IMG/VR virus record: IMGVR_UViG_3300027782_000038
Length of the DNA stretch: 64,000 bases
DNA from: a virus
Strand: one strand, 5' to 3'
The translations under genes were made by a program, and so were the position numbers. Each line of letters opens with the position of its first letter. Position 1 is the stretch's first letter. This document shows, piece by piece, positions 46,761-62,848 of the stretch. The notes beneath the pieces are model-generated. The model ran no database searches and was not told the origin of the DNA. It saw nothing but the letters and a program-made list of their open reading frames with translations.

Positions 46761-46835
46761 CTGGCGTTCGTATAGTGGACAATACAGTAGGCTTCTACCC
46801 TTCTAACGGGAGTTCGATTCTCTCACGCCGGACCA
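46761..46835 (+). tRNA. tRNA-Arg(TCT)
   Basis: Cloverleaf; loop CT-TCT-AC, TTCGATT T-loop, CCA. Confidence 0.85.
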
Positions 46836-46845
46836 AAGGATTATT

Positions 46846-47265
46846 ATGTTAGAATGTTTGATTTTAGGTGATAGTATTGCAGTTGGTACTAAAATGTTTA
46901 TGCCACAATGCGAATTACAAGGCAAAGGTGGAATTAACACATGGCAGTTTAATAAGATGTATCCAGGTAGTTTTTATGCAGATACAGTTATTATTAGTCT
47001 TGGTTCAAACGATCACAAATATGTTAAAAGCTATGATGAACTGTTTGAAATTCGCCAACGTGTCGGTGCTAAAAATGTATTTTGGATTTTACCGCATGGT
47101 AATCTTAAAGCACCACAAAACTTACCAGTTGATGAGATTCAAAAAATTGTACGTAATATAGCCGAATACTATGGTGATACGGTGTTACCTATTCGAGGTA
47201 TTAGTACCGACAATATTCATCCTACGGGTAGTGGTTATAAAGATATTGTAACACGGGTTAAATAA
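46846..47265 (+). CDS. SGNH/GDSL-type hydrolase-like protein
   Basis: LILGDSI, LGSND and DNIHP (DxxH) blocks. Confidence 0.75.
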   Translation: MLECLILGDSIAVGTKMFMPQCELQGKGGINTWQFNKMYPGSFYADTVIISLGSNDHKYVKSYDELFEIRQRVGAKNVFWILPHGNLKAPQNLPVDEIQKIVRNIAEYYGDTVLPIRGISTDNIHPTGSGYKDIVTRVK

Positions 47266-47319
47266 TTATGTATAATTAAAAAGAAAGAGATAGAAGATAT
47301 TATAAAAGGTTGTTTTAGT

Positions 47320-47398
47320 GGGCCTATAGCTCAGTCTGGTTAGCAGCAATCGTCTCATAAACGATAGGTCATGGGTTCAAATCCCGTTGGGCCCACCA
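47320..47398 (+). tRNA. tRNA with CAT anticodon, probably Ile2 (lysidine-modified)
   Basis: Ile-like body GGGCCTATAGCTCAG; loop CT-CAT-AA, CCA. Confidence 0.85.
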
Positions 47399-47434
47399 AA
47401 ACATCTTTTTAACTAACGCAGTAAAATGATTTTT

Positions 47435-47517
47435 GGGGGTATGGTGAAATTGGTAGACACACTTGGTTTAAGCCCAAACGCTTCGGCATGAGAGTTCGAA
47501 TCTCTCTACCCCCACCA
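47435..47517 (+). tRNA. tRNA-Leu(TAA)
   Basis: Cloverleaf with variable arm; loop TT-TAA-GC, CCA. Confidence 0.9.
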
Positions 47518-47529
47518 AAAGGATATATT

Positions 47530-47958
47530 ATGAAACAAAAATTTATTGATGCGTACATGGATACAGCAAAAAGATTTGCTCAATTATCCACAGCCAGACG
47601 TTTAAAAGTTGGTGCTATCATTGTAAAAGATGATCGTATCATTTCCATTGGATATAATGGAACACCTCCTGGTTGGCATAATGATTGTGAGTATTGGGTT
47701 GAAGATGGTGATTTGGGTTCCGGTTGGAAAACTAGACCAGAAGTAATTCATGCGGAGGCCAATGCCATCGCTAAACTCGCTAAGAGTTCTGAGTCTGGAG
47801 ATGGTTCCACAATGTTCCTGACCCATTCTCCTTGTATGGATTGTGCTAAACAGATATTTACGGCAGGAATTAAGAAAGTTTATTTCGGTAATAATTACCG
47901 TTCTGATGATGGTATCAATTTCTTAAAGAAGTGTAATGTTGATGTTGAAAAGGTTTAA
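47530..47958 (+). CDS. cd: dCMP deaminase
   Basis: VGAIIV, GYNG, HAEANA and SPCMDC motifs. The true start is ATG 47530 because the ORF-track start lies inside tRNA-Leu. Confidence 0.93.
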   Translation: MKQKFIDAYMDTAKRFAQLSTARRLKVGAIIVKDDRIISIGYNGTPPGWHNDCEYWVEDGDLGSGWKTRPEVIHAEANAIAKLAKSSESGDGSTMFLTHSPCMDCAKQIFTAGIKKVYFGNNYRSDDGINFLKKCNVDVEKV

Positions 47959-48032
47959 AGATAAATACGTTTGTGTGACGATAACTTGGATATGAAATTA
48001 TTAGGTCAACTTTCTAAAGAGGAGAAAACCTG

Positions 48033-48557
48033 ATGCAATTAAGTATAGTTGGTTGTCCTGATAAAAAACTATTCAGACCATACGTCAAACGTGCAATTTT
48101 ATTTTATGCTGAAGAATTGTTTAGTAAGAAAATGTCAGAAAACGTATTTCTACAAGTTAAATTTAATGCTGAATTAGATGTTTATGGTTACGCTTCCGTT
48201 GAAGATTGTAATAGTAGTGGTAAACCAAGAGAATTTTTAGTAGAAATAAATTCAGAAATTGGTGCACCTGATATTTTAAAAACAATTGCACATGAAATGG
48301 TTCATGTTAAACAATTCCTTTATGGTGAAACCAACGAAACATTAACTCGTTGGAAAGGCATGAAGATATCAAGTGATACTAATTACTATTGTCAACCTTG
48401 GGAAATAGAAGCTCATGGAATGGAAGTTAGTTTGTTCTCAAGGTTTGCAATCAAGGAGAAACTTTGGGACGTATTTGAAGGTGTAAATAATCCGGACGGT
48501 CCGGTAAAACAAACGGATATTGGTTGGAAAGAATCATTTTTGAATAGTACGTTGTAA
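48033..48557 (+). CDS. Zinc metallopeptidase-like protein (HExxH)
   Basis: IAHEMVHVKQ and PWEIEA motifs. Confidence 0.7.
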   Translation: MQLSIVGCPDKKLFRPYVKRAILFYAEELFSKKMSENVFLQVKFNAELDVYGYASVEDCNSSGKPREFLVEINSEIGAPDILKTIAHEMVHVKQFLYGETNETLTRWKGMKISSDTNYYCQPWEIEAHGMEVSLFSRFAIKEKLWDVFEGVNNPDGPVKQTDIGWKESFLNSTL

Positions 48558-48621
48558 AAATACAACAAGTTTGGTATATATTAAGAAAAATCTTGCCTAT
48601 ATACATATATAAGAGTATAAT
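48550..48621 (+). promoter_or_regulatory. Sigma70 promoter of the leader peptide, with upstream palindrome
   Basis: CGTTGT-N6-ACAACA (48550-48567); TTGCCT(48593)-17-TATAAT(48616). Confidence 0.6.
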
Positions 48622-48657
48622 TGTTATATTGAATGAATTAAAACAAAAGGAAATATC

Positions 48658-48756
48658 GTGTTATCAATACAGAAACCATCCATGCATACAGAGTATCGCA
48701 CACCGAGCAATTGGTCAGCGATTGGCTTTGATTGCGTCCGTGGGGTTTGTGTATAG
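48658..48756 (+). CDS. Putative attenuator leader peptide MLSIQKPSMHTEYRTPSNWSAIGFDCVRGVCV (contains all 20 amino acids)
   Basis: AAGGA RBS 6 nt before GTG; 32 codons; its 3' end overlaps the antiterminator strand GGGGTTTGT. Confidence 0.75.
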   Translation: MLSIQKPSMHTEYRTPSNWSAIGFDCVRGVCV

Positions 48757-48821
48757 TTAGAAAGTAGTTTCCTCTAAATTTACAAACCCCAAGACCTAAA
48801 AAATCTTGGGGTTTTTCTTTT
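48742..48821 (+). terminator. Attenuator: antiterminator (48742-50 with 48782-90) versus intrinsic terminator (48784-94 with 48804-14, plus U tract)
   Basis: GGGGTTTGT/ACAAACCCC is mutually exclusive with AAACCCCAAGA/TCTTGGGGTTT-TTCTTTT. Confidence 0.8.
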
Positions 48822-48823
48822 CC

Positions 48824-48885
48824 TGTTGTACAAAAACAACACTTTAGAAAATAGTTGTTGACATAGTGTGTGGAACCTGTATAAT
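48824..48885 (+). promoter_or_regulatory. Sigma70 promoter with upstream palindrome
   Basis: TGTTGT-N6-ACAACA, 16-bp gap, TTGACA-16-TATAAT, then AGAGTCT. Confidence 0.8.
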
Positions 48886-48937
48886 AGAGTCTGTTGTGTA
48901 ACAAAACGTTCTTTAAAAATTAGAGTAGTACATATGT

Positions 48938-49013
48938 TGGGGTATCGCCTAGAGGCCTAAGGCATCGGTCTTTGAAATCGAGATCACTGGTTCGAATCCA
49001 GTTACCCCTGCCA
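48938..49013 (+). tRNA. tRNA-Gln(TTG)
   Basis: Cloverleaf; loop CT-TTG-AA, CCA. Confidence 0.92.
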
Positions 49014-49121
49014 TATTGAAGTACATTCAAGGCGTAGCGCACGCTGATATAGTGGACATAGCTAAGCTCTGAACAGGCATTGTTGGCAGGTTCGATTCCT
49101 GCGGAGTGTATTTCAATATGG
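49011..49121 (+). ncRNA. tRNA-like ncRNA (18-bp terminal helix plus T-arm)
   Basis: CCATATTGAAGTACATTC/GAGTGTATTTCAATATGG helix enclosing GCAGG-TTCGATT-CCTGC. Confidence 0.6.
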
Positions 49122-49213
49122 TAAGTAAGAATAGACGAAAAGTCACCGGTGAGACTAGATGCTTTGGCAACAGAGCTAGGTTTATTCTTGTCGATCTTGG
49201 CCAATCGACACCA
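49120..49213 (+). ncRNA. Structured ncRNA candidate ending in ACCA
   Basis: Stems AAGAATAGAC/GTTTATTCTT, GCTTTG-GCAA-CAGAGC and TGTCGAT/ATCGACA, then CCA. Confidence 0.45.
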
Positions 49214-49235
49214 TATTAATATGGTATTAACAAAT

Positions 49236-49323
49236 GGGTAGGTGGTAGAGTGGTCTATTGCTCCAGTCTTGAAAACTGGCGACTGGAAACGGTCCGTGGG
49301 TTCGAATCCCACCCTGCCCTCCA
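49236..49323 (+). tRNA. tRNA-Ser(TGA)
   Basis: Long variable arm; loop CT-TGA-AA, CCA. Confidence 0.92.
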
Positions 49324-49374
49324 TTATTGAAAACCAAAATGTACTAAATAAAGTCATACATTTTGGAGATAAAA

Positions 49375-49818
49375 ATGCAAAAAAGATCATCAGCTAGAGA
49401 TTTAGCTATACAGGAAAATAAAAAAACTTATTTAGCTAAACCTTGTAAATCATGCGGTACAAGTGAAAAATATGTAAGTAGTTATAGTTGTGTGAAATGC
49501 AATATTGAAAAGAATTCACATAAATTATTTAATAGTGATTTGATGGAAAAATACAGATCAAAATCAATATTAAATGCAAAAACATATAGGTATCGTTCTA
49601 GAAAAAGAAACCAGATGCCTGATGATGCAGATAAAGAAAAGATATTGGAGTTTTATAAAGAAGCAGAACGATTAACTGAAGAAACAGGAATCTTGTATAG
49701 TGTGGATCATATAATACCTTTATCGAAAGGAGGTCTACACCATCATGATAATTTACAAGTTATCACATTAAGTGAAAATAGTAGAAAGGGGAATAAATTA
49801 TGCCAGCCGTTTTCTTAA
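49375..49818 (+). CDS. HNH endonuclease
   Basis: VDHIIPLSKGGLH..DNLQVI...EN..K motif and N-terminal CxxC pairs. Confidence 0.88.
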   Translation: MQKRSSARDLAIQENKKTYLAKPCKSCGTSEKYVSSYSCVKCNIEKNSHKLFNSDLMEKYRSKSILNAKTYRYRSRKRNQMPDDADKEKILEFYKEAERLTEETGILYSVDHIIPLSKGGLHHHDNLQVITLSENSRKGNKLCQPFS

Positions 49819-50396
49819 CATCAGATAGCCACTTCGGCCACGCCGGTGTTTGTCGTTTTACACACCAAGATACAGGTGTAAAAATTAGACCATGGACAGA
49901 TCCAGATGAAATGGATGAAGCGATGGTCAAACTCTGGAACGAAAAAGTAGGTAAGAATGATAAAGTATATCACCTTGGTGACGTAGTAATTAACCGTAAA
50001 GCTCTTGGTATTATGCGTAGACTTAACGGTGATAAAGTTCTTATTCGTGGTAACCATGATATTTTTCGTGATGATGAATACCGCCAACATTTCAGAGAGC
50101 TTCGTGCTTATCATGTAATGAACGGAATGATTCTTTCACATATTCCACTTCATCCAGATAGTGTAGGTAGATTTGGTACTAACATTCATGGACACCTTCA
50201 TACGAACCGTGTTATGAAGGCGAAAGGAATTAATTATCCGACTGGAGAAATTATCTACAGCGAAACGGAGATTGATCCACGTTATCATTGTGTTTGTGTT
50301 GAACAAACAGATTTTACACCAATTCTTTTTGAAGATGTAATTAAGAGAATTGAAGCACAAGGTGGCAAGGTAGGTTTTCAGAACGGAAATGGGTAG
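49800..50396 (+). CDS. Calcineurin-like metallophosphoesterase
   Basis: SDSHFGH, HLGDV, GNHD, SHIP and HGHLH motifs. Confidence 0.9.
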   Translation: MPAVFLTSDSHFGHAGVCRFTHQDTGVKIRPWTDPDEMDEAMVKLWNEKVGKNDKVYHLGDVVINRKALGIMRRLNGDKVLIRGNHDIFRDDEYRQHFRELRAYHVMNGMILSHIPLHPDSVGRFGTNIHGHLHTNRVMKAKGINYPTGEIIYSETEIDPRYHCVCVEQTDFTPILFEDVIKRIEAQGGKVGFQNGNG

Positions 50397-50478
50397 TTGG
50401 CCGAGCGGTTAAGGCAAGGGATTGCTAATCCCTCATTGGGAAACCGATGGATAGGTTCGATTCCTATACTACCCGCCA
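50391..50478 (+). tRNA. tRNA-Ser(GCT)
   Basis: Long variable arm; loop TT-GCT-AA, CCA. Confidence 0.92.
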
Positions 50479-50486
50479 TTTTTAAT

Positions 50487-50564
50487 AGTGCGATGGCTGA
50501 GTGGTCAAAAGCAACGGATTGCAAATCCGTAAAATCGTCAGTTCAAATCTGACTCGCACTTCCA
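50487..50564 (+). tRNA. tRNA-Cys(GCA)
   Basis: Loop TT-GCA-AA, U73, CCA. Confidence 0.92.
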
Positions 50565-50626
50565 TGTTGTAAGAAAACAACAGATTGTAAAATACTTGTT
50601 GACATATTGTGTGGTTCATGTATAAT
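50565..50626 (+). promoter_or_regulatory. Sigma70 promoter with upstream palindrome
   Basis: TGTTGT-N6-ACAACA, 16-bp gap, TTGACA-16-TATAAT, then AGAGTCT. Confidence 0.8.
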
Positions 50627-50646
50627 AGAGTCTATTGTTTAGTAAT

Positions 50647-50721
50647 GCACCGTTAGACTTCTGGTGAGGTCACCACCCTTTCAAGGTGGCTAGATGGGAT
50701 CGTAACCCATACGGTGTACCA
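50647..50721 (+). tRNA. tRNA-Glu(TTC)
   Basis: Loop CT-TTC-AA, atypical T-loop ATCGTAA, CCA. Confidence 0.85.
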
Positions 50722-50728
50722 GTTTAAT

Positions 50729-50804
50729 GCAGGCATAACTCAACTGGTAGAGTAATCGGCTTTTAACCGATAAGTTGTGAGTTCAAGTCTCACTGCCTGT
50801 ACCA
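50729..50804 (+). tRNA. tRNA-Lys(TTT)
   Basis: Loop CT-TTT-AA, CCA. Confidence 0.92.
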
Positions 50805-50818
50805 AAGAATTTTTTGGT

Positions 50819-50892
50819 GTGACTATGTTGTAACGGTAGCAACGCAGTTTGTGATTCTGCTAGTCTGGGTTCAACTCCCAGTAGTCACCCCA
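50819..50892 (+). tRNA. tRNA-His(GTG)
   Basis: Loop TT-GTG-AT, C73, CCA. Confidence 0.88.
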
Positions 50893-50904
50893 AAAAGTTT
50901 TAAT

Positions 50905-50979
50905 GGCTCGTTAGTATAATGGTTATTACAGAGGATTGTCTATCCTCCTATGGGAGTTCGATTCTCCCACGGGTCGCCA
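50905..50979 (+). tRNA. tRNA-Asp(GTC)
   Basis: Loop TT-GTC-TA, G73, CCA. Confidence 0.92.
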
Positions 50980-50981
50980 AG

Positions 50982-51079
50982 TTTTGCACCTGGCGTAATG
51001 GTAGCGTTACAGGTTAGTATCGAAAGGTATGCCCGAGAGGCGATGCGGGAGGTGCAGGTTCGAATCCTGCGGTGCAAAA
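50982..51079 (+). ncRNA. tRNA-like RNA lacking an anticodon arm and CCA
   Basis: Acceptor TTTTGCACC/GGTGCAAAA, D-like TGGCGTAATGGTAGCG and T-arm GCAGG-TTCGAAT-CCTGC; the middle is replaced by small GAAA/GAGA hairpins. Confidence 0.6.
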
Positions 51080-51088
51080 AAAGTTTAT

Positions 51089-51172
51089 GCGTTGGATGCT
51101 CTAATGGTAGGGCAGCGGGCTGTAACCCCGTGGTTTTAGGACAAGTAGGTTCGATCCCTACCCAACGCACCA
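51089..51172 (+). tRNA. tRNA-Tyr(GTA)
   Basis: Loop CT-GTA-AC, variable arm, CCA. Confidence 0.9.
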
Positions 51173-51242
51173 AGTTTTATTTGGAGAACACTTTAATTGT
51201 ATAAATTGTTCAATTTATAAATACTCCAAAAAGGAGTGTGAT

Positions 51243-51806
51243 ATGTGGTCTTGTAAACATTGTAACGAAGAATTTAATTTTATTACGACTAGTGAAAAAG
51301 GTAATCATACTAGATGGTGTGAAAAAAATCCAAATAGAGTTAGTGTTAATCTTTTAAATTCTATAAAAAATAGAATGATCAATAAATTTGGTGATTATAA
51401 AAAATTTGATGTTATTTGTAATGAATGTAATACAATTTTTATTGTAGAAGAAAGATATAAACTTTTTCCTTCAAAAGAAAAATACTTTTGTTCACGAAAC
51501 TGTGCAAATAGTGTTGGTGGTAAAGCTAAAAGAGAAAAGTATGGTTTAACCGGATATGTTTCTATTGCAAAACAATTTTATGAAGAAAAATGTATAGTTT
51601 GTGGTTATGATGAATTAGTTGATGTTCATCATATAAATGGAGATAGGAATAACAATGAAGCAACAAATTTAGTGTTCCTATGTCCAAATCACCATTATCT
51701 TTTACATAGAAAAAAATCAGAAAAAGTTAAACAAGCAATTTCAGAATTTATAGAAAAAAAATGGGGTCAAGGTGTTGATGACGGCACACGAGATTTGCAA
51801 TCTTGA
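51243..51806 (+). CDS. HNH endonuclease with zinc fingers
   Basis: CIVCG....VDVHHINGDRNNN...NL..LCPNHH motif; late promoter at 51216-51223. Confidence 0.88.
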   Translation: MWSCKHCNEEFNFITTSEKGNHTRWCEKNPNRVSVNLLNSIKNRMINKFGDYKKFDVICNECNTIFIVEERYKLFPSKEKYFCSRNCANSVGGKAKREKYGLTGYVSIAKQFYEEKCIVCGYDELVDVHHINGDRNNNEATNLVFLCPNHHYLLHRKKSEKVKQAISEFIEKKWGQGVDDGTRDLQS

Positions 51807-51837
51807 AGGTAGAGTTTGATTCTCTATGGCTCCACCA
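51763..51837 (+). tRNA. tRNA-Ala(TGC)
   Basis: G3:U70 pair; loop TT-TGC-AA, CCA; overlaps the 3' end of the HNH gene. Confidence 0.82.
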
Positions 51838-51859
51838 AGTTTTAAATAGTGTTCTTTGT

Positions 51860-51934
51860 CTGGGTATATTGTCAATCTGGTAGACGGCCTTGTTTGGAAC
51901 GAGGAGGCTGTAGGTTCAAATCCTACTACCCAGA
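51860..51934 (+). tRNA. tRNA-Pro(TGG), CCA not encoded
   Basis: C1:G72, A73, loop TT-TGG-AA; followed by CAA. Confidence 0.85.
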
Positions 51935-51947
51935 CAAAGAACATTAT

Positions 51948-52022
51948 GGAAGTATAGCGTAGAGGTAGCGCAGCGCCTTCATACGGCGTAGGTCGTAAGT
52001 TCAAATCTTACTACTTCCACCA
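51948..52022 (+). tRNA. tRNA-Met(CAT), elongator type
   Basis: Paired G1:C72; loop TT-CAT-AC, CCA. Confidence 0.87.
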
Positions 52023-52027
52023 GTTTT

Positions 52028-52102
52028 AGGTCCTTAGTAAAATGAATATTACATTTCGCTACGAACGAAAAAGTGAAGGTTTGATTCCTTCAGGACCTTC
52101 CA
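52028..52102 (+). tRNA. tRNA-Arg(ACG)
   Basis: Loop CT-ACG-AA; atypical D and T loops; CCA. Confidence 0.82.
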
Positions 52103-52112
52103 AGTATTAAAT

Positions 52113-52146
52113 GCTGGGGTGCTCAGAGGAAGAGCAATGTGTTGAT
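52113..52146 (+). pseudogene. 5' half-tRNA remnant ending at anticodon GAT (Ile)
   Basis: GCTGGGGT-GCTC-AGAGGAA-GAGC-A-ATGTG-TT-GAT, followed directly by the endonuclease promoter. Confidence 0.6.
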
Positions 52147-52176
52147 CTATACTAAATAAGTATAGGAGAGTAAAAA

Positions 52177-52779
52177 ATGTCAAAATTTCAAATAAAATGT
52201 TGTTGTATTAAATGTAAGATTGAAACTACAACGGGGCAACTTACACGAAATCATAAAGATAAATGTCCGAGTATTAACGTTGTTAAATTTCCTAAAAATA
52301 TAGGAAGAACCGCATGGAATAAAGGATTAACTAAAGAAACTTCTGAATCTTTATCAAAAGCAAGCGAGACTATGAAAAGATTAGGTCACGGTGGGTGGTC
52401 AAAGACAGCTGCTACAAATGGCGGAAAAGCCGGTGGCGGATATAGAGAGAACGCTGGCCGAAGTAAAAAATTCAAAGTAACAGATTCATTCGGAAAAGAA
52501 ACTGTCTTGCAAAGTACATACGAATTAAGATGTAGTGATATATTAAATGAATTAGCAATTAATTGGATTCGTCCAAAAGCGTTAAAATACGATAATAGGA
52601 ATTACTTTGCTGATTTTTACCTGCCAGATTACAATATCTGGCTTGATCCTAAAAATAGTTATAAAGCAAAGCAAGACGAAGAAAAAATAAGAAAAGTGAT
52701 AGAACAAAACAATGTTAAATTATATATTTTGTTAGAAGAACATCTTACTGAAGAATTTATACAACACCTTTGTAGTTAA
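52177..52779 (+). CDS. PD-(D/E)xK-type putative homing endonuclease
   Basis: QSTYE...Y.ADFYLPDYNIWLDPK and AWNKGLTKET (NUMOD-type) motifs. Confidence 0.75.
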   Translation: MSKFQIKCCCIKCKIETTTGQLTRNHKDKCPSINVVKFPKNIGRTAWNKGLTKETSESLSKASETMKRLGHGGWSKTAATNGGKAGGGYRENAGRSKKFKVTDSFGKETVLQSTYELRCSDILNELAINWIRPKALKYDNRNYFADFYLPDYNIWLDPKNSYKAKQDEEKIRKVIEQNNVKLYILLEEHLTEEFIQHLCS

Positions 52780-52839
52780 ATGGTATAACAGCCGCTTGAT
52801 AAGCGGCCATTACAAGTTCAATTCTTGTCGAAGGTACCA
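52766..52839 (+). tRNA. tRNA-Ile(GAT)
   Basis: Loop TT-GAT-AA, CCA; overlaps the endonuclease stop codon. Confidence 0.9.
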
Positions 52840-52845
52840 AGTTTT

Positions 52846-52920
52846 ATCGCTCTAGTGTCAACGGCAGCACAACTGACTCCAAATCAGCTGGTGAGGGTTC
52901 GAATCCTTCGGGCGGTGCCA
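52846..52920 (+). tRNA. tRNA-Trp(CCA)
   Basis: Loop CT-CCA-AA, G73, CCA. Confidence 0.9.
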
Positions 52921-52928
52921 AGTTTTAA

Positions 52929-53002
52929 GCGGGTATGATGTAAAGGTAACCTGACACCTTGCCAAGGTGTATTTGAGAGTTCGATTCTCTCTACCCGCTC
53001 CA
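52929..53002 (+). tRNA. tRNA-Gly(GCC)
   Basis: GCG acceptor, U73, loop TT-GCC-AA. Confidence 0.92.
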
Positions 53003-53022
53003 TTTAACAAGGAGAATATATT

Positions 53023-53499
53023 GTGCGTACTATTGATATTCAAGAAGTAAAATCTTTCATCGAGTCTCAGGGTCCTGATACAAAGATTTATATTGGTGGT
53101 GACTCCGAAAGATTTAATCTTGGTAATGTATGGTACGCTGATTACACTCTTGCTATTGTTGTTCATGTGAATGGAAACAATGGTTGTAAAATTTTCGGTG
53201 AAGTTCAACGTGAACGTGATTGGGATGCTAAAAAAGACCGACCACGGATGCGATTAATGAATGAGGTTTATAAGATTGCCGAATTATATTTAAAGTTACA
53301 AGATGTATTAGAAGATCGTGTGGTAGAAGTTCACTTGGACATTAATCCAAACGAAATGCATGGTTCATCTTGTGTTATTAATGAAGCAATAGGTTACATC
53401 AAAGGTATGTGTAATGTTATTCCTTTGGTTAAACCACAAGCGTTTGCTGCTTCTTATGCAGCAGATAGATTGAAGTTTGTTTTAGATAGAGCAGCATAA
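53023..53499 (+). CDS. YkuK-family RNase H-like protein
   Basis: IYIGGDS, EVHLDIN..G.S and KP.AFAAS.AAD motifs. Confidence 0.8.
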   Translation: MRTIDIQEVKSFIESQGPDTKIYIGGDSERFNLGNVWYADYTLAIVVHVNGNNGCKIFGEVQRERDWDAKKDRPRMRLMNEVYKIAELYLKLQDVLEDRVVEVHLDINPNEMHGSSCVINEAIGYIKGMCNVIPLVKPQAFAASYAADRLKFVLDRAA

Positions 53500-53500
53500 C

Positions 53501-53575
53501 GGATTCTTAGCACAGCGGTAGTGCGGCTCCCTTACAAGGAGTAGGTCGTAGGTTCAATCCCTACAGAATCCACCA
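53501..53575 (+). tRNA. tRNA-Val(TAC)
   Basis: Loop CT-TAC-AA, CCA. Confidence 0.92.
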
Positions 53576-53580
53576 ATACT

Positions 53581-53656
53581 GCTGACTTAGCTGATGTGGT
53601 CATAGCGGCGGTTTGAAGAACCGTTGAAGTTGGTTCGATTCCAACAGTTAGCACCA
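53581..53656 (+). tRNA. tRNA-Phe(GAA)
   Basis: Loop TT-GAA-GA, CCA. Confidence 0.9.
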
Positions 53657-53661
53657 GAATT

Positions 53662-53738
53662 GCCTCGGTGACGTAATTGGTAGCCGTGTTGGTCTTAGAA
53701 ACCAAATTCTGTGGGTTCGAGTCCCACCTGAGGCACCA
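53662..53738 (+). tRNA. tRNA-Leu(TAG) with short variable loop
   Basis: Leu-type D-arm; loop CT-TAG-AA; 5-nt variable region; CCA. Confidence 0.85.
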
Positions 53739-53747
53739 AGTTTACCA

Positions 53748-53785
53748 ATATATCACTTGACTTTAAAACTTGAGTGATATATAAT
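53748..53785 (+). promoter_or_regulatory. Sigma70 promoter overlapped by an inverted repeat
   Basis: TTGACT(53757)-17-TATAAT(53780); ATATATCACT...AGTGATATAT. Confidence 0.6.
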
Positions 53786-53800
53786 AGTATATAAGAGTTA

Positions 53801-53875
53801 GCCCTCATAGTATAATGGCCATTACAGTTGACTTGTAATCATCAAATCCTAGTTCGATTCCAGGTGGGGGCACCA
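53801..53875 (+). tRNA. tRNA-Thr(TGT)
   Basis: Loop CT-TGT-AA, CCA. Confidence 0.88.
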
Positions 53876-53885
53876 AAGTTTTTAT

Positions 53886-53951
53886 GCGGCGTGTTTAGGA
53901 CAGTGAAGGTGACCAACCTGATCTCTAGTGTCGAAACTAGGCGCCGCTCCA
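53886..53951 (+). ncRNA. Degenerate 66-nt tRNA-Gly-like RNA (possible ACC anticodon)
   Basis: Acceptor GCGGCGT/GCGCCGC with U73 and CCA; reduced D-arm; non-canonical T-loop. Confidence 0.6.
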
Positions 53952-53972
53952 GTTTTTTTATTGTGAGATAAT

Positions 53973-54197
53973 ATGTTTGTTAAATTGACCAATGCTAATC
54001 CTGCTTTTTCAGGTAAACCACTTCTTATTAGGAAAGATTTAATTGTGACTGTGTACGAAGGTACACTAACGCATGAGGATACTTCTACTGAATCAGTAAC
54101 GTTTGTTTTTGCACCACCTCATGGTGAGTGGCAAGTTAAAGAAAGTGTTGAAGAAGTATTACGATCATTAAGAATTGCAACAACAAAGTTAGATTGA
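53973..54197 (+). CDS. Small FlbD-like protein
   Basis: MFVKLT.....G.P..I..DLI..V.E....T......VKESVEEV pattern. Confidence 0.5.
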   Translation: MFVKLTNANPAFSGKPLLIRKDLIVTVYEGTLTHEDTSTESVTFVFAPPHGEWQVKESVEEVLRSLRIATTKLD

Positions 54198-54205
54198 AGT
54201 TTTAT

Positions 54206-54281
54206 TCCCCAGTAGCTCAGTCGGTAGAGCAAAACACTGTTAATGTTTGGGTCATTGGTTCAAGTCCAGTCTGGGGAGCCA
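54206..54281 (+). tRNA. tRNA-Asn(GTT)
   Basis: TCC acceptor; loop CT-GTT-AA, G73, CCA. Confidence 0.93.
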
Positions 54282-54302
54282 TTTTATAAAAAAGGTAGTA
54301 AT

Positions 54303-54500
54303 ATGAAAGCAGTTTTGTCTAGTGTTATATCAGTATTGGCACTTACTGGATGTGTAGTAACAGATCCATATTATGTTCAACCTGTGCCAATATATGTTCA
54401 ACCTAGACCTGTGTATATCGTTCCGCAAGTTCGTTGTTATTATATGCAACAATGGAATGGTTATAAAAGACAATATCAAACTGTTCATATTTGTCGTTAA
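54303..54500 (+). CDS. Small putative lipoprotein
   Basis: MKAVLSSVISVLALTG-C lipobox; Pro/Tyr-rich mature part. Confidence 0.65.
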   Translation: MKAVLSSVISVLALTGCVVTDPYYVQPVPIYVQPRPVYIVPQVRCYYMQQWNGYKRQYQTVHICR

Positions 54501-54511
54501 GAAGTAAATAT

Positions 54512-54585
54512 GCGAGATTAGTTTAATGGTAAAACTCCTTCCTTCCAAGTAGGTGTCATCAGTTCGATTCTGATATCTCGCTCCA
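54512..54585 (+). tRNA. tRNA-Gly(TCC)
   Basis: GCG acceptor, U73, loop CT-TCC-AA. Confidence 0.9.
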
Positions 54586-54606: not shown

Positions 54607-54918
54607 ATGGAAATTATTGCTTTAAAATTAATTACAGGTGAAGATGTTTTAGGTGAACTTGAATCTGAAACAGAACTTGTTGTAGTATTATCTAATCCAG
54701 TTGGTATCGCTGTCGTTCGTGGTAAAGACGGTACACCAAATATCGGATTCTCGCCGTTCCCTATTCATGCGGAACAAAAAAAAGACAACTCAATTGTTTT
54801 CTTAAATAAACACGTTGTTTATCATTATATACCAGCTGAAGATTTTATTACAAATTACAAACAAATCTTTGGTTCAGGTATCGTAGTTCCACCCCAAAAA
54901 CAGATTATTACAGGTTAA
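54607..54918 (+). CDS. Conserved T4-like hypothetical protein (Sm-like fold likely)
   Basis: LKLITGEDVLG...NPV...Y...FGSGIV.P pattern; directly upstream of gp43. Confidence 0.65.
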   Translation: MEIIALKLITGEDVLGELESETELVVVLSNPVGIAVVRGKDGTPNIGFSPFPIHAEQKKDNSIVFLNKHVVYHYIPAEDFITNYKQIFGSGIVVPPQKQIITG

Positions 54919-56216
54919 TGAGCAAATATTATACAAACGTTCAATGTTTCGGTAACAGTATTCTTTACCGAGGCATTATAGACGGTAAACGTGTTAAACA
55001 GAGAATTGATTATTCTCCATCACTTTATCTCCCATCAAGAAAGAATCCACAGGGAAAATTCAAATCACTAACTGGTCTTCCATTAGATCAAAAAGAATTT
55101 GATGATATTCGTGCAGCCAGAGATTTCATCAAGCAATTTGATGGTCTTCCTGGTGCACCTGTCATCTATGGTCAAAATCGTTTTGAGTATGCTTATATTG
55201 CCGATAACAATAAAGGTATGGTTGATTACGATCAGGATAAAATTCTTATCGGTGTAGTTGATATTGAGGTTGGTTCAGAGAATGGTTTTCCTGATCCATA
55301 CCTTGCAAACGAACCAATCACAGCCATTGGCATTAAGTATCTCAATGGTGAAATGGTTGTATTTGGTTGCGGTGATTATGAGAAGAAAGGTACCGAGATT
55401 TACGTCAAATGTAAAGATGAATGGACACTATGCAAAAAGTTTCTAGAATTATGGCAAAAGAAATGTCCAGATATCATCACAGGATGGAACACAAAGTTCT
55501 TTGATATTCCATATCTCATCAATCGTTTTCGTAAGATTCTTGGTGAAGATGATGCTAAGAAATTATCACCATGGAATTACATTGGTGAACGTAAAACCAC
55601 CATTAATGGTAAACAGTTAATTGCCTATGACATGATGGGTGTTGCATCACTTGATTATATTGAACTATACAAATGGTATGCTCCTGGTGGTAAGTCACAA
55701 GAATCATATCGTTTGGATAACATTGCTCAAAATGAATTGGGTGAAGGTAAAATTTCATATGATGAATATGATAACCTACATTCATTGTATCGTTTGAACT
55801 TTCAATTGTTTATTGAATATAACATCAAAGACGTTGAATTGATTGTTAAGTTGGAAGATAAATTAAAGTTACTTGAGATGGCTGTTACTTTGGCCTACGA
55901 TACTAAATCAAACTATGAGGATGTATTTGCACAGACCCGTATGTGGGACGCAATGACTTATTCTTATCTTTTAGAAAAGGATATCATTGTACCACCACGT
56001 ATCATCAAAGAAAAAGATGGTATGTTTGAAGGTGCATACGTTAAAGAAGTACAAGTTGGTGCTCATGATTGGGTTGCCAGCTTTGACCTAAATTCACTTT
56101 ACCCCCACCTTATGATGCAATATTCCATAAGTCCTGAAAATCTTGTGGAAAGAAGTTATATTGAAGATAGAAAACAAAAATTGATCGAGGAGTTAAAGTT
56201 GAGAAATACTAAATAA
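54918..56216 (+). CDS. gp43: DNA polymerase gp43, fragment A (N-terminal and exonuclease domains plus palm motif A)
   Basis: DIEV (ExoI), GWN..FFDIPY (ExoII), YNIKDV (ExoIII) and SFDLNSLYP (motif A). Confidence 0.95.
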   Translation: MSKYYTNVQCFGNSILYRGIIDGKRVKQRIDYSPSLYLPSRKNPQGKFKSLTGLPLDQKEFDDIRAARDFIKQFDGLPGAPVIYGQNRFEYAYIADNNKGMVDYDQDKILIGVVDIEVGSENGFPDPYLANEPITAIGIKYLNGEMVVFGCGDYEKKGTEIYVKCKDEWTLCKKFLELWQKKCPDIITGWNTKFFDIPYLINRFRKILGEDDAKKLSPWNYIGERKTTINGKQLIAYDMMGVASLDYIELYKWYAPGGKSQESYRLDNIAQNELGEGKISYDEYDNLHSLYRLNFQLFIEYNIKDVELIVKLEDKLKLLEMAVTLAYDTKSNYEDVFAQTRMWDAMTYSYLLEKDIIVPPRIIKEKDGMFEGAYVKEVQVGAHDWVASFDLNSLYPHLMMQYSISPENLVERSYIEDRKQKLIEELKLRNTK

Positions 56217-56245
56217 GTAGATGTGGTTACTTATTAGGAGAATCA

Positions 56246-56779
56246 ATGAAATACAATATTACCAAAGATAAACTCTATGAATTGTTTATTACCAAGAATA
56301 TGAGAAGGAGTGAGGTTGCCGAATATTTTGGTTGTTCGGATGCCAACATTAAAAAATACCTACAAAAATTTGCCATCAAGAAGCCTTTTGATTTAGAATG
56401 TAAGAATAAAGAACGAAAGGCCTTGTTGAATTGCTTACATTGTAATAATGAATATGAAACACAAAAGTTTCGGACTGAAAGTGATAAGTATGATTCAAAA
56501 TATTGTAGTTATTCCTGTGCTCAAAAAAGTAGATATTTGGGTGGCGACCACAAACGTAGAATCAGAAATGAAATTGCTGCAAGGCGTAGAGCAAGAATTC
56601 GTAACCAAACACCAAAATTGAGTAAAGAAGAAAAGAAAAAGTTACAAGAATATTATTTGATTTGTCCTAAAGGACATGAAGTGGATCACATACAAGCAAT
56701 TGCAAAAGGTGGTTTACATCATCCTGATAACTTACAGATATTGACTATGAATGAGAATAGAAAAAAGTGGTGTAAATAA
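56246..56779 (+). CDS. HNH endonuclease splitting gp43 between fragments A and B
   Basis: N-terminal HTH, CxxC/YCSxxC and EVDHI.....GGLH.PDNLQIL...EN motifs. Confidence 0.88.
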   Translation: MKYNITKDKLYELFITKNMRRSEVAEYFGCSDANIKKYLQKFAIKKPFDLECKNKERKALLNCLHCNNEYETQKFRTESDKYDSKYCSYSCAQKSRYLGGDHKRRIRNEIAARRRARIRNQTPKLSKEEKKKLQEYYLICPKGHEVDHIQAIAKGGLHHPDNLQILTMNENRKKWCK

Positions 56780-57105
56780 TGTTTCGTAATGTAAAAGAAT
56801 TAACAACCGAAGAACTACAAAAAGAAATTCAGGCCATAGAATTATTTGAACAAGAAATTGGTAAAGTCAATGTTGAGAATATGTTGAACAAATCTATTGA
56901 TACTTCTTTTCTTGGTCCAATGAAATGCACCATCACACCTAACGGCCAGATGTTTAGAACCGACCATCAAGGTTTCTTACCAAGAATGATGGAAGAAATG
57001 TATGAAGATCGTAAGAAATTTAAAAAGTTGATGCTCAAGGCTCAACAAGAGTATGAGTTAGTTTTAGCGGAGATTGAAAAAAGAAGAGGTTTGCAAGAAA
57101 AATAA
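56779..57105 (+). CDS. gp43: DNA polymerase gp43, fragment B (palm segment plus first finger helix)
   Basis: PNGQMFR....GFLP.MM..MY.DRK.FKK.M is the gp43 segment between motifs A and B. Confidence 0.9.
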   Translation: MFRNVKELTTEELQKEIQAIELFEQEIGKVNVENMLNKSIDTSFLGPMKCTITPNGQMFRTDHQGFLPRMMEEMYEDRKKFKKLMLKAQQEYELVLAEIEKRRGLQEK

Positions 57106-57140
57106 TACTAAATAGAGCATGGTCTAAAAAAGGATGATAA

Positions 57141-57917
57141 ATGCCCAATCAATTTAGTGTTATAACAAAAGAAATAGAATCTAAATTAAATGAAATAGAA
57201 AGTATGTTGAAAAGTGGATATAGTGTGGGTGAAATTCAAAAAAAATTGATAAAATATAGTTATAGTGGTATATACAATTGTATTCAAAAGAATGGTTTAT
57301 CCAAATATGTTTCCACTAAAAACATAGGAAAAAGCAGAACATATAAGAAAATGTTAGATGATTATGATAATAACCATGAATTAAATTTTGAAACATTAAA
57401 TCAGTTATATAATGTTGATAAAAAAGATTTATATGAAATTGCTAAAATGTTTGGAGTTAGTCCTTCTGGTGTATTATATCGTATGAGAAAATTGGGTTTA
57501 CAGACCCGAAATAAATCGGAAGCTTCTGAAATCCTTTATATGAAAAAACCTGAACTGAGGGAAACTCATCGTAAAAATGCAAATGAAGGTAAAACAGGAA
57601 TATTCAAAAAAGGAAATAATTATTCAAACACTTGGATAGAAATAGCATTTAGGGAATACTGTGAACTACATAATATACAATTTCAACCACAATTTCAAAT
57701 AACAAAAGATACTCATAGATATGATTTTTTAATTGGCAAAAACATCTTAGTTGAACTTGATGGAACATATTGGCACAACAAGCCAAAACAAAAAGAGAAA
57801 GATGTATTACAGGAAGAATATGCAATAAACAACGGTTTTGTTGTATTGAGGATTACCGATAAACAAATAAAAGAAACAAAAGGTGAATGTTTTGAAATCA
57901 TTAAACGATATGTCTGA
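57141..57917 (+). CDS. Vsr/DUF559-like endonuclease splitting gp43 between fragments B and C
   Basis: T.IE, YDFLI....LVELDGTYWH, D......GF.VLRI motifs plus HTH repeats. Confidence 0.85.
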   Translation: MPNQFSVITKEIESKLNEIESMLKSGYSVGEIQKKLIKYSYSGIYNCIQKNGLSKYVSTKNIGKSRTYKKMLDDYDNNHELNFETLNQLYNVDKKDLYEIAKMFGVSPSGVLYRMRKLGLQTRNKSEASEILYMKKPELRETHRKNANEGKTGIFKKGNNYSNTWIEIAFREYCELHNIQFQPQFQITKDTHRYDFLIGKNILVELDGTYWHNKPKQKEKDVLQEEYAINNGFVVLRITDKQIKETKGECFEIIKRYV

Positions 57918-58996
57918 TTCCGAATTGATTAGTTATAAAAATGAACTGGAAAGGAGAGTTGCAAGATATAATAATTTGCAACTTGCGAAAAAGGTGTCAC
58001 TTTAACTCCGCTTACGGTGCTTTGGGTAGTCAGTACTTTCGTTTTTATGATCTGCGTATGGCACTTGGTGTCACTTCTGCTGGCCAACTTTCCATTAGGT
58101 GGATTGAGTCTAAAATTAACAATTGGATGAATAAAATCATTGGATCTAAAGATGTAGATTATGTTATTGCATCTGATACAGATTCCATTTATCTTCGTAT
58201 GGGTGAATTGGTTGACAAGTTTATCAAAGATACATCCGATAAACAAAAAGTAATCTCACTCATGGATAAAATCTGTGAAGAAAAGATTCAACCATTTATT
58301 GATAAGTCTTATGTTGAGTTAGCTGATTACGTTCATGCATATGATCAAAAGATGCAGATGAAGCGTGAAGGACTATCAGACAAAGGTATTTGGACTGCCA
58401 AGAAACGTTATATTCTAAACGTGTATAATAATGAAGGTGTTCAGTATGCAGAACCTAAGATGAAAGTCATGGGTCTTGAAATGGTCAAATCTTCAACACC
58501 AGCTTCTATTCGTGAAAAGATGAAAGAGTCTATTGGTATTATGTTACGTGGTACTGAACAAGATATTCATAAATTCATTGCTGACTTTAGACAAGAATTT
58601 AAAAAGTTACCTGCTGAAGAAATTTCTTTTCCACGTGGACTGAATGGCTTAGCTAAATACTCAGATGCAGTATCATTGTATAAACTTGGTACACCTATTC
58701 ATGTGAAAGGTGCCATTCTCTATAACAATTATTTGAAACAAAACAATCTTACTAAAAAGTATCCACTCATCCAAGAGGGAGAAAAGGTTAAGTTTACCTA
58801 TTTGAAACTACCAAACCATTTTAAAGATATGGTAATTTCATACCCAAGTAGACTTCCTAAAGAATTAGGCCTTGACAAGTACATAGATTATGATGTACAA
58901 TTTGATAAGGCCTTCTTGGAACCAATCAAAGTCATTCTTAATTGTTTGGGTTGGACAACTGAAAAGGTAAACTCACTGGAAGATTTCTTCAAATAA
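57892..58996 (+). CDS. gp43: DNA polymerase gp43, fragment C (second finger helix, motifs B and C, thumb); requires a +1 shift at 58000-58006
   Basis: Frame 57892 reads MKSLNDMSDSEL...ARYNNLQLAKKVSL* and the +1 frame continues NSAYGALG...SDTDS...KKRY, ending in the clamp-binding tail SLEDFF. Confidence 0.88.
57991..58006 (+). other. Candidate prfB-like +1 frameshift site (or 1-nt insertion error)
   Basis: AAG GTG TCA CTT TAA C aligns with prfB AGG GGG TAT CTT TGA C. Confidence 0.5.
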
Positions 58997-60400: not shown

Positions 60401-61742
60401 AGATTACCTAAGAAAAGTATTACCCTTTGTAAAGCCAGAATATTTTCAAGATAAAACCGAACGTACAATCTTTAATGAAATATCATCATTCACAACGACT
60501 TACAATAGTACACCAACGATTGAAGCAATCGGTATTGCCGTCAAAGAAAGGAATTCTTTTTCAGATGATGAAGTGGAGAAGTTACACTCTTATCTTAAAG
60601 AAATTGAAAGTAATAAAGAAACAAGTACCCAAGTACAATGGCTTGTTGATAAGACAGAAAAGTTTTGTCAAGAGAAAGCAATTTACAATGCAGTATTGGG
60701 GTCTATTTCAATTCTCGATGGTAAAGACAAAACAAATGACAAAGGTCAGATTCCCAAGATATTATCAGATGCGTTAGCAATAAGTTTTGATGCAACTGTT
60801 GGTCATGACTATTTGGAAAACTCAGATGAACGGTATGAATTTTATCATAAGACAGAAGAAAGAATTCCATTTGACCTAGAATTTTTCAATAAAATCACCA
60901 AAGGTGGTTTACCAAAGAAAACTCTTAATATCGCATTAGCTGGTACAGGTGTCGGTAAATCTTTGTTTATGTGTCATGTGGCTGCTGGTGCAATGACACA
61001 AGGTAAGAATGTTCTATATATCACTATGGAAATGGCTGAAGAAAAGATTGCGGAACGTATTGATACAAACTTATTGAATGTTACCATTGATGACTTGATG
61101 GAATTACCTAAAGATGTGTATGACAAAAAGGTCAAACGTGTCAGAGATAAAACCACAGGTAAATTGATTATCAAAGAATATCCGACAGCCTCAGCTTCAA
61201 CTATTCACTTCAGGACCCTATTGAATGAACTTAATCTCAAAAAGTCTTTTGTGCCTGATATTATCTTTATTGATTATCTCAACATATGTTGTAGCTCTAG
61301 AATTAAAGCAGGAGCAAACATTAATTCGTACACTTATGTTAAATCAATCGCTGAAGAATTGCGTGGTCTTGCCGTTGAATTCGGAGTACCAATTGTATCT
61401 GCGACACAAACAACACGATCAGGTTTTAGTTCTTCCGATCCAGGACTTGAAGATACAAGCGAGAGTTTTGGTTTGCCTGCCACCGCCGATTTGATGTTTG
61501 CTTTGATTACTTCAGAAGAATTGGAAGGTCTAAATCAAATCATGGTTAAGCAATTGAAAAATCGTTATGCTGATCCAACATATTACAAAAGGTTTACTGT
61601 TGGTATTGATAGATCGAAAATGAGATTGTATGATATTGAACAATCCGGACAATCTGGTATTGCAGATGCAGGCCATACTGGGCCTACAAAACCTAATGCT
61701 CCCGGTTCTACAAAAAAATCATTTGATGGATTTAAAGTATGA
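60357..61742 (+). CDS. gp41: Replicative DNA helicase gp41
   Basis: AGTGVGKS, EMAEE.I..R.D, IDYL and SATQT.R.G....TSESFGLP motifs. Confidence 0.97.
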   Translation: MRLETTILKNLIYNEDYLRKVLPFVKPEYFQDKTERTIFNEISSFTTTYNSTPTIEAIGIAVKERNSFSDDEVEKLHSYLKEIESNKETSTQVQWLVDKTEKFCQEKAIYNAVLGSISILDGKDKTNDKGQIPKILSDALAISFDATVGHDYLENSDERYEFYHKTEERIPFDLEFFNKITKGGLPKKTLNIALAGTGVGKSLFMCHVAAGAMTQGKNVLYITMEMAEEKIAERIDTNLLNVTIDDLMELPKDVYDKKVKRVRDKTTGKLIIKEYPTASASTIHFRTLLNELNLKKSFVPDIIFIDYLNICCSSRIKAGANINSYTYVKSIAEELRGLAVEFGVPIVSATQTTRSGFSSSDPGLEDTSESFGLPATADLMFALITSEELEGLNQIMVKQLKNRYADPTYYKRFTVGIDRSKMRLYDIEQSGQSGIADAGHTGPTKPNAPGSTKKSFDGFKV

Positions 61743-62848
61743 AGTTAACTACCGAACAGGCTTTATATTGTTCTAAAGTGTTTGATGATTACTTCAGTAA
61801 TATTGGAAGTACTGAAGAATATATGCGTGATGAAAAGTTAAAAAATCTTAGTGATTTACCTTCTACATTATTTCCAATAGAAGATGATTTATTTTCTGAT
61901 TTTTCTATGCATCCAAAAGATATGGATATCACCGTAAGTGAAATTCCAAATACTCAATGGCAATCTTTGGTTGCAATTACTTCATCACATATCAATAAGT
62001 CTCCAGTTGGTAAGAACCTTCAACTGGCAGTCAAAGAAAAGAATTCGGGAAAGATTCTAGGTTTCATTCGTTTAGGTTCACCATTGATCTATATGAAACC
62101 TCGTAATGAATTGCTTGGACAGGTCTGGATTCAACAACCTGATACATCCAAACGATTCAATGATGCTACAGTAATGGGTTTTGTTATTGTACCATCACAG
62201 CCTTTCGGTTTCAACTATCTTGGTGGTAAACTTTTGGCCGCCATTTGTACTAGTCACACCGTCAGAGAAATGTGTAATAAAAAATATGGTATGAATGTAT
62301 GTCTGTTTGAAACCACTAGTTTGTATGGTACAACAAAATCTGTATCACAGTATGATGGTATGAAACCATTTATAAGATTTGGTGGCCTAACAGAATCAGA
62401 CATTGTACCTATGATGCATGGTGAAAGATATCATTCCTTGAAACAATATGTTGAAGATATTGTTGGAGATTTATTACAAGGTGATACTTCAACCACAAGT
62501 AGAAAATTGAGAACATTCACTAAGATTATTGCTCTCACTAAGGCTGCATTAAAAGGAACAACCGAAGGTGATAAGTTCCTTTCAACAATTGAAAATGCCA
62601 AAGAATTAACTGAAAGAAAACGTTATTATACATCAGATTATGGTTTTAAAAATACGATAGATTACATGGCTTGTAGGACAGATACTTTAATTCCTGGTGA
62701 AAATTATCACAAACATGAATTAGGTAATATTGTTGAATGGTGGCGTAATAAAGCTATAAATAGATATGAAACCCTAAAAAATGAGGGTAGATTGAGGACA
62801 GAATTAGAAATCTGGACTTCTGGAAAATATATTCAAATTATTAGGTAA
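61739..62848 (+). CDS. DUF4338 / DruA-like protein, paralog 2
   Basis: GK.L...V.E..SGK.LG.I.LGS, VP.QPFGFNYLGGKLLA and ETTSLYG....SQYDG motifs. Confidence 0.6.
   Translation: MKLTTEQALYCSKVFDDYFSNIGSTEEYMRDEKLKNLSDLPSTLFPIEDDLFSDFSMHPKDMDITVSEIPNTQWQSLVAITSSHINKSPVGKNLQLAVKEKNSGKILGFIRLGSPLIYMKPRNELLGQVWIQQPDTSKRFNDATVMGFVIVPSQPFGFNYLGGKLLAAICTSHTVREMCNKKYGMNVCLFETTSLYGTTKSVSQYDGMKPFIRFGGLTESDIVPMMHGERYHSLKQYVEDIVGDLLQGDTSTTSRKLRTFTKIIALTKAALKGTTEGDKFLSTIENAKELTERKRYYTSDYGFKNTIDYMACRTDTLIPGENYHKHELGNIVEWWRNKAINRYETLKNEGRLRTELEIWTSGKYIQIIR

Follow-up and report, generated by a model that had tools for sequence, protein, structure and literature searches.

In the 64,000-nucleotide (nt) window of viral DNA analyzed here (IMG/VR virus record IMGVR_UViG_3300027782_000038), the family-B DNA polymerase gene, gp43, is divided into three pieces, A, B and C. 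The pieces are separated by an HNH endonuclease gene and a Vsr-like (DUF559) gene. Each of these genes belongs to an independently mobile cassette, the two cassettes are stacked within gp43, and the arrangement recurs in related alleles. Piece C is interrupted by a stop codon inside motif B, and the layout of the sequence around this stop makes it very likely that piece C is made by a +1 ribosomal frameshift of the prfB type. Taken as a whole, the locus is probably explained by two cassettes, three chains and one +1 shift. Below, L-numbers denote the relative loci and alleles compared with the window, and all features of the gp43 locus lie on the plus strand.

A conserved, probable frameshift signal in motif B

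The original prediction for this DNA treated piece C, 57892–58996, as one gene. It turned out that the frame that starts at TTG 57892 (or at the alternative ATG 57910, overlapping the stop of the Vsr-like gene) ends at TAA 58003–58005 after the residues KKVSL, and the +1 frame is needed to read on. The zero-frame segment (57892–58002, 37 codons, with a Shine–Dalgarno (SD) sequence upstream) encodes a helical N-terminal tail and helix P as far as KKVSL and holds the lysine of motif B. NSAYG, motif C (58172), the thumb and a clamp-binding-type motif (58973) are read in the +1 frame from AAC 58004 and make up the other 330 amino acids (aa; 58004–58996). One extra T breaks the codons of motif B, and a +1 slip restores an intact KKVSLNSAYG exactly. 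The break lies in a signal at 57991–58006, inside motif B, that reads AAGGTG-TCA-CTT-TAA-C: an SD element AAGGTG (57991–57996; strength −6.5 kcal/mol), a 3-nt spacer, CTT (58000–58002) and TAA followed by C (58003–58006).

We compared this site among gp43 alleles. All 14 Vsr-bearing alleles, which were retrieved by protein search, contain the frame break in the form AAGGTG-NNN-CTT-TAA-C. The codons AAG GTG are present in 14/14 shifted and 1/60 in-frame alleles (Fisher p = 3e-14, a significance inflated by shared descent), and CTT in 14/14 and 19/60, respectively. The spacer codon varies (TCA, TCT, AGT, TGT, CAA or GGT); the SD and CTT-TAA-C are invariant, and every copy has UAA as its stop. 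Within the window, the motif is found a single time, compared with 0/100 shuffles, and the TAAC stop context is rare in this phage (2/39 genes). The RNA fold across the shift site was not significant (z = 1.05), and the fold just downstream was modest (z = −2.0). In total, 29 distinct contexts carry the signal, in polymerases down to ~40% protein identity; the motif was fixed in the pattern search that yielded them, so that this number shows only the range.

A single extra T in a short run of T in a metagenomic assembly could reflect a misassembly or a homopolymer error, or the gene could be dying and replaced by an intact copy. Of all the explanations weighed, such artefact or decay is the least credible and is largely refuted. 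The same extra base is found in the 29 contexts, which come from JGI, ENA, NCBI and Logan assemblies, and since it is common to every related Vsr-bearing allele examined, it is not an assembly error of the window. The gene is under strong purifying selection, stands at its canonical site before uvsX and the gp41-like helicase gene, and has at least nine other three-piece forms.

Piece C might also be made with no frameshift at all, if translation starts in the +1 frame or reinitiates; the enzyme would then have four pieces or carry Arg in place of the motif B Lys. An open 351-aa reading frame does start at ATG 57941; it is the gene-caller product, and the fourth residue ahead of its motif B Asn is Arg. 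However, only a few close alleles have this ATG, the SD is not followed by a start codon, and it is the zero frame that agrees with the intact protein and shows purifying selection. In addition, in L116 the +1 frame is closed from 2 codons upstream, in L117 it is open for 11 codons, and it has no conserved start, which together exclude initiation in this frame as a general route. We consider this explanation very improbable. Transcriptional slippage was rejected by inference, the run of three T being far too short. As gene callers start piece C at the wrong place and miss the lysine of motif B, these alleles have probably been taken for errors or pseudogenes. Another assembly contains an identical Vsr-like protein in the same five-gene series, with genes of 177, 108, 258 and 351 aa.

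Breakpoints and a probable three-chain active site

Piece A (54918–56216, 432 aa) contains the N-terminal and 3′–5′ exonuclease domains with the ExoI (55260), ExoII (55488) and ExoIII (55818) motifs, followed by motif A (56085), and ends in a basic helical tail that has no counterpart in intact alleles. Piece B (56779–57105, 108 aa) consists of an acidic helical N-tail (residues 1–28), palm strands, helix O and a helical C-tail. The original prediction had placed both pieces correctly, together with the HNH and Vsr/DUF559 reading frames between the pieces, the 5′ spacers of 29 and 35 nt before the two endonuclease genes and the overlap of the endonuclease 3′ ends with the next piece. The HNH stop overlaps the ATG of B, and the end of the Vsr-like gene overlaps the start of C. 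The breaks were mapped via an intact relative aligned to T4 gp43. Break 1 follows the motif A helix, within a variable stretch of the first palm segment, ~20 residues past motif A. Break 2 is at the fingertip, between fingers helices O and P. Across the pieces, every exonuclease and polymerase motif is intact.

The pieces could be rejoined by RNA splicing, in cis or in trans, or by protein splicing. Phage gp43 is a known host of introns and inteins (L117 has an intein elsewhere in the gene), and nothing positive was found in favor of splicing here. An Rfam search detected no group I or group II intron family in the gp43 locus, and no intein N or C termini were seen in the gp43 pieces by inspection, which agrees with the earlier claim that introns and inteins are absent. 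The short spacers also argue against splicing, as do nuclease-less alleles, in which the pieces are adjacent or overlapping and keep tails that are under selection at the protein level. Splicing thus has very little probability. With no intron or intein and with separate genes, the polymerase is probably put together from three chains.

Residues 52–96 of B align with RB69 residues 456–500, and R78 and K82 of B correspond to R482 and K486 on helix O, which have triphosphate-binding roles in RB69 (PMC3061061). The equivalents of R78 and K82 are invariant in ten stand-alone B proteins. Because B carries these residues, the deoxynucleoside triphosphate site would draw on all three chains: the motif A Asp from A, helix O from B, and motifs B and C from C. 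This strengthens the original prediction of an active site built from three polypeptides, which had missed that motif B needs a +1 frameshift. We hold with good confidence that A, B and C would assemble into an active three-chain enzyme. The predicted fold of B alone was of moderate quality (predicted local distance difference test 72, predicted template modelling score 0.30) and was used for helix boundaries only. Prediction of a complex between the A tail and the head of B (score 0.12, mark 0.32) was counted as evidence neither way.

The gp43 pieces and the tails are under purifying selection. Compared with L013, the ratio of nonsynonymous to synonymous substitution rates (dN/dS) is 0.09 for both A and C, 0.15 for B and 0.10 for the HNH gene; for the Vsr-like gene compared with L112 it is 0.25. 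In the zero frame of C, dN/dS is 0.46 for the tail and 0.25 for the 16 homologous codons. The tails range from 0.22 to 0.46, with 0.25 for the A tail and 0.22 for the B N-tail at the palm break. Such low values indicate that the gene is not decaying and lend indirect support to the proposed assembly of the pieces into an active enzyme.

The fingertip cassette

The mobile fingertip cassette (57057–58003) includes the C-tail of B, a promoter-like TACTAAATA (57106–57114), the Vsr-like gene, the N-tail of C, a replacement helix P and the extra T. The Vsr-like gene (57141–57917) encodes a putative homing endonuclease of the EDxHD type (258 aa; Pfam DUF559 above the cutoff), in which a DUF559 domain with E, D, H and D residues, identified by inspection, stands behind a DNA-binding N-terminus. 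We found 30 homologous Vsr-like proteins, and all loci examined place the gene at the same gp43 fingertip. The borders of the cassette are sharp in L118, whose flanks are ~99% identical to those of its near-twin with an intact gene, L073. The left border follows ...YE (window 57057), and the right border is exactly the extra base (58003). In place of approximately 30 native codons, the cassette brings the C-tail, the nuclease gene, the N-tail and a recoded helix P. The window and L118 differ by one mismatch over 57052–58021 and are ~65–85% identical outside this region, and in L118 the palm of the polymerase that hosts this cassette is intact. The conversion tract shared with L089 and L118 ends 14–18 nt beyond the extra base.

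Other loci show related arrangements at this place. A GIY-YIG cassette occupies the same gp43 fingertip in L146 (2740–2761), L147 (8413–8434), L149, L150 (~4640–4690), L151 and L152. It has no CTT-TAA shift; instead, a stop-containing insert lies between matched GGT codons 7 codons downstream, just after NSAYGALG. The insert is 5 nt long in L146, L147 and L149 (GGT-TA-GGT) and 9 nt long in L150–L152 (GGT-TAG-TTA-GGT). By analogy with the take-off, stop and landing sites of T4 gene 60, these inserts are candidate miniature ribosomal hops. In L168, whose polymerase is ~38% identical, a 262-aa gene without a Vsr match (~100–900 nt upstream) precedes the same frameshift signal; here, one nuclease may have replaced another and left the shift in place.

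In L153, L155 and L160, the fingertip split and the frameshift are accompanied by an extra gp43 break in the exonuclease domain (~residue 290) with a similar helical N-tail, which is a different three-piece form. L117 and L162, which also have the fingertip split and the frameshift, carry an intein in the gp43 exonuclease domain (L117, 1–760, by inspection; L162 probably, judging from its length and an alignment gap). In L089 (~1083–3290), uvsX has a fractured-gene layout, broken up by intein-like segments and by an HNH-like gene that is free-standing.

The palm cassette

The palm cassette extends from roughly 56110 to 56900 and contains the free-standing HNH gene (56246–56779, 177 aa; PHROG HNH, E 2e-12). 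Copies of this gene 77–95% identical are present on 20 viral contigs, and more than 20 distinct alleles have the A/BC palm split. The window is 85–97% identical to L009 and L122 across the cassette and mostly 60–80% outside it. Alleles with the palm split and intact alleles are supported sisters (L018 with L066 and L078; L004 with L036). The gap holds the same HNH gene, a different gene of 171–180 aa, small cargo genes or nothing; in nuclease-less palm-split alleles, the pieces are adjacent or overlapping and the tails are kept. The different gene, in L003 (3468–4001), L006, L007 and L015, stands behind a TATAAATA promoter; its N-terminus is GIY-YIG-like by eye, and Pfam finds only a C-terminal helix-turn-helix domain. 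Small cargo reading frames are present in the gap of L002, L007, L014, L125, L127 and L150.

The tails at the palm break are conserved and opposite in net charge (mean +1.9 versus −4.4). The B N-tail was never found on a full-length protein: all 62 matches are ≤461 aa, so no fused unbroken form was seen, which is weak evidence. There is about an even chance that the tails are docking helices.

Between A and the HNH gene lies a region (56207–56241) in which a late-promoter-like TACTAAATA (56207–56215) is held in the 5′ arm of a hairpin. The hairpin extends into the ribosome-binding site AGGAGA (56236–56241) of the HNH gene, is conserved in HNH alleles and has a fold z of −2.3, with 7/200 shuffles as strong. 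The promoter-like motif is present before both nuclease genes; upstream of the Vsr-like gene, the fold z is 0.2 and there is no hairpin. By analogy with the late expression of T4-type homing endonucleases (PMC2988022), TACTAAATA and the hairpin touching the ribosome-binding site may control late expression of the HNH gene. An invariant immunity signature was not found at motif A, where recoded codons are enriched (9/29 versus 0/47) and not fixed.

Recurrence of the splits

Besides the window, three-piece alleles were found in L114, L115 and L150, and at least nine other stand-alone B proteins (104–107 aa) carry both tails. On a tree of the C-terminal part (83 rows), the shifted alleles need 14 changes, 7 of them forced by supported branches, and the palm split needs 17 changes, 7 of them forced; this was a quick IQ-TREE run with long-branch warnings, in which recombination also scatters labels, and it is read alongside the sharp pairwise borders. 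L013, whose polymerase stands closest to that of the window on the tree, carries just the palm split, which fits a fingertip cassette that arrived after the palm cassette. The original prediction knew of no precedent for a three-way split with a break inside the palm. We also found none in the literature, but the arrangement recurs, and it consists of two stacked cassettes.

Proposed explanation

Our explanation builds on the observed anatomy, conservation, mobility, selection and signal layout. Two unrelated homing-endonuclease cassettes would each have inserted into gp43 without a splicing element, each supplying a C-tail for the upstream piece, an N-tail for the downstream piece and a replacement of the displaced codons. 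From one polycistronic message, A, B and C would be translated separately and assemble non-covalently. At the end of the zero frame, the ribosome would pause at UAA with tRNA-Leu on CUU, be held by the internal SD and slip +1 as in prfB; ribosomes that terminate would release a 37-residue peptide.

The extra base could be explained by the nuclease itself. The protein constrains the codons of motif B, which would be the kind of target that homing endonucleases use. I-Bth0305I tolerates most single substitutions and cuts adjoining its insertion site (PMC3239194). In T4, an insert bypassed by the ribosome blocks nicking by MobA (bioRxiv 10.1101/2022.08.31.505936). In the same way as this 50-nt bypass, the extra base may spoil the nuclease target within a protein-constrained region: an insert of one base that is repaired in translation would alter the DNA spacing and leave the protein unaltered. 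By this analogy, we find it fairly likely that the extra base gives immunity to the nuclease.

The main alternative to immunity is that the frameshift is real and mainly regulatory or tolerated, capping or tuning the amount of piece C, for instance through release-factor level or the state of translation during infection, and hitchhiking with the cassette with no protection from the nuclease. The frameshift is kept after nuclease loss in L096, L098, L155 and L162, the prfB layout is a known sensor (PMC10798248), and extra functions are suspected for the T4 bypass too (10.1101/2022.08.31.505936). On the other hand, among the alleles compared, the frameshift was never seen without the fingertip split and cassette, it is located exactly at the cassette border, and UAA is not specific for release factor 2 (RF2). 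Moreover, a second nuclease family has a different insert at almost the same place, and this convergence supports immunity. We regard the regulatory alternative as unlikely, although less so than the other alternatives considered above.

Several points weigh against our explanation. A second intact gp43 may lie beyond the 64,000-nt window. The palm cassette has no frameshift-type insert, only weaker recoding signatures; apparently, recoding is not required by every cassette. The two tail pairs resemble each other only marginally (hhalign; 1/40 shuffles as high), and so a common origin of the pairs has no more than marginal support. UAA is read by both release factors, and shifting may be less efficient at it than at UGA. 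An RF2-type site has an SD strength of −10.7 kcal/mol, compared with the weaker −6.5 kcal/mol here.

We lean slightly toward a more general reading, in which homing endonucleases of aquatic T4-like phages would use minimal recoding for splice-free immunity of their target in the catalytic motif of the polymerase. The recoding would take the form of a one-base prfB-type shift with Vsr-like nucleases and of short stop-hops with GIY-YIG nucleases. The helical tails would be stackable, and the result would be a three-chain active site with one chain dependent on a frameshift. The locus illustrates the degree of fragmentation that a family-B polymerase can reach, and its relatives form a natural series of intact, palm-split, fingertip-split and three-piece alleles with or without the nuclease, including the near-identical pair L118 and L073.

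Genomic neighborhood

The genome is T4-like, and gp43 is the upstream neighbor of uvsX and the gp41-like helicase gene. The nearest polymerases of cultured phages are only ~47% identical to the gp43 of the window. Labels from metagenome-assembled genomes were set aside as probably mis-binned. A cluster of 24 tRNA genes lies at 46761–54585, in which Leu(TAA) and Leu(TAG) are present and Leu(GAG) is not. Nuclease-like genes lie between the tRNA genes at 49363–49818, 51243–51806 (HNH) and 52177–52779, each preceded by a TAAATA-type motif. A conserved 369-aa protein whose function is not known (61739–62848; phrog_19197, E 2e-124) is coupled to the helicase gene.

Comparison with known systems

Our literature search, which covered bicistronic gp43 via citing papers, returned no break after motif A, no stacked three-piece gp43 and no prfB-type shift in a homing cassette inside motif B. 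Each part of the locus nevertheless resembles a known system. In prfB, which encodes RF2, an SD also lies 3 nt upstream of CUU-U, the A-site stop is followed by C, and the first reading frame is short (PMC10798248, PMC5009743). Here we found the slippery CUU-U with an A-site stop, the +1 continuation and the SD exactly 3 nt upstream, conserved beyond the need of the protein. In contrast to prfB, the stop is UAA and not the RF2-specific UGA, autoregulatory logic is absent, and the signal is part of a mobile element.

In Aeh1 nrdA-a/mobE/nrdA-b, as here, an intron-less HNH insertion is accompanied by oppositely charged tails, and there is a composite active site, as proposed here (PMC3045599, PMC2988022). 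In addition, mobE has a late promoter with a hairpin that sequesters the ribosome-binding site (PMC2988022), to which the promoter-like motif and the hairpin before the HNH gene may correspond. The Aeh1 enzyme is a different one, with a single split and no recoding, and the function of its tails was tested. The gp43A/gp43B genes of Aeromonas and Acinetobacter phages 25, 31, 44RR, 65 and 133 share the fingertip break, as cited in PMC3061061 and PMC2988022. According to these papers, a free-standing GIY-YIG gene is present in one case and co-expressed halves are active. The citing papers report two pieces, with neither a palm break after motif A nor a frameshift in motif B; here there are three pieces, and C needs a frameshift. 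Among EDxHD fractured genes, a Vsr-like gene stands between halves of replication genes, including an intein-less SbcD case with terminal extensions (PMC2677866; I-Bth0305I, PMC3239194). In the parts of these sources that we consulted, most cases are split inteins, and neither a gp43 host nor a frameshift is reported.

The closest likeness is to T4 mobA with genes 39 and 60, where a nuclease also splits an essential enzyme and adds extensions and a replacement region that ends in a recoding element (PMC5009743; 10.1101/2022.08.31.505936). The MobA element also moves between clades, and its recoding outlives the nuclease. Here, too, the recoding element stands at the 3′ end of the nuclease cassette. 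In T4 gene 60, ribosomes bypass 50 nt with the help of stem-loops and a nascent-peptide signal; the 50-nt gap, the matched take-off and landing codons and the stimulatory structures are absent here, where a one-base prfB-type +1 shift is proposed. The host is also different (motif B of a replicative polymerase), the nuclease is Vsr-like, and a second cassette brings the number of pieces to three. Immunity was demonstrated for MobA, and here it is suggested by analogy. The T4 gene 60 bypass is the model case for recoding as a by-product of homing-endonuclease invasion, and the family of loci described here suggests the same logic with the smallest possible insert, in a replicative polymerase, with a second nuclease family reaching it by convergence.

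A free-standing nuclease gene lies between separate pieces without a splicing element, the tails are under selection, also after nuclease loss, and the cassettes spread horizontally with sharp conversion borders. Thus, the locus belongs with the intron-less nuclease-fractured genes, such as Aeh1 nrdA, T4 39/60 and the fingertip-split gp43. In the way it works, it resembles both the MobA bypass cassette and the prfB shift, without belonging to either class.

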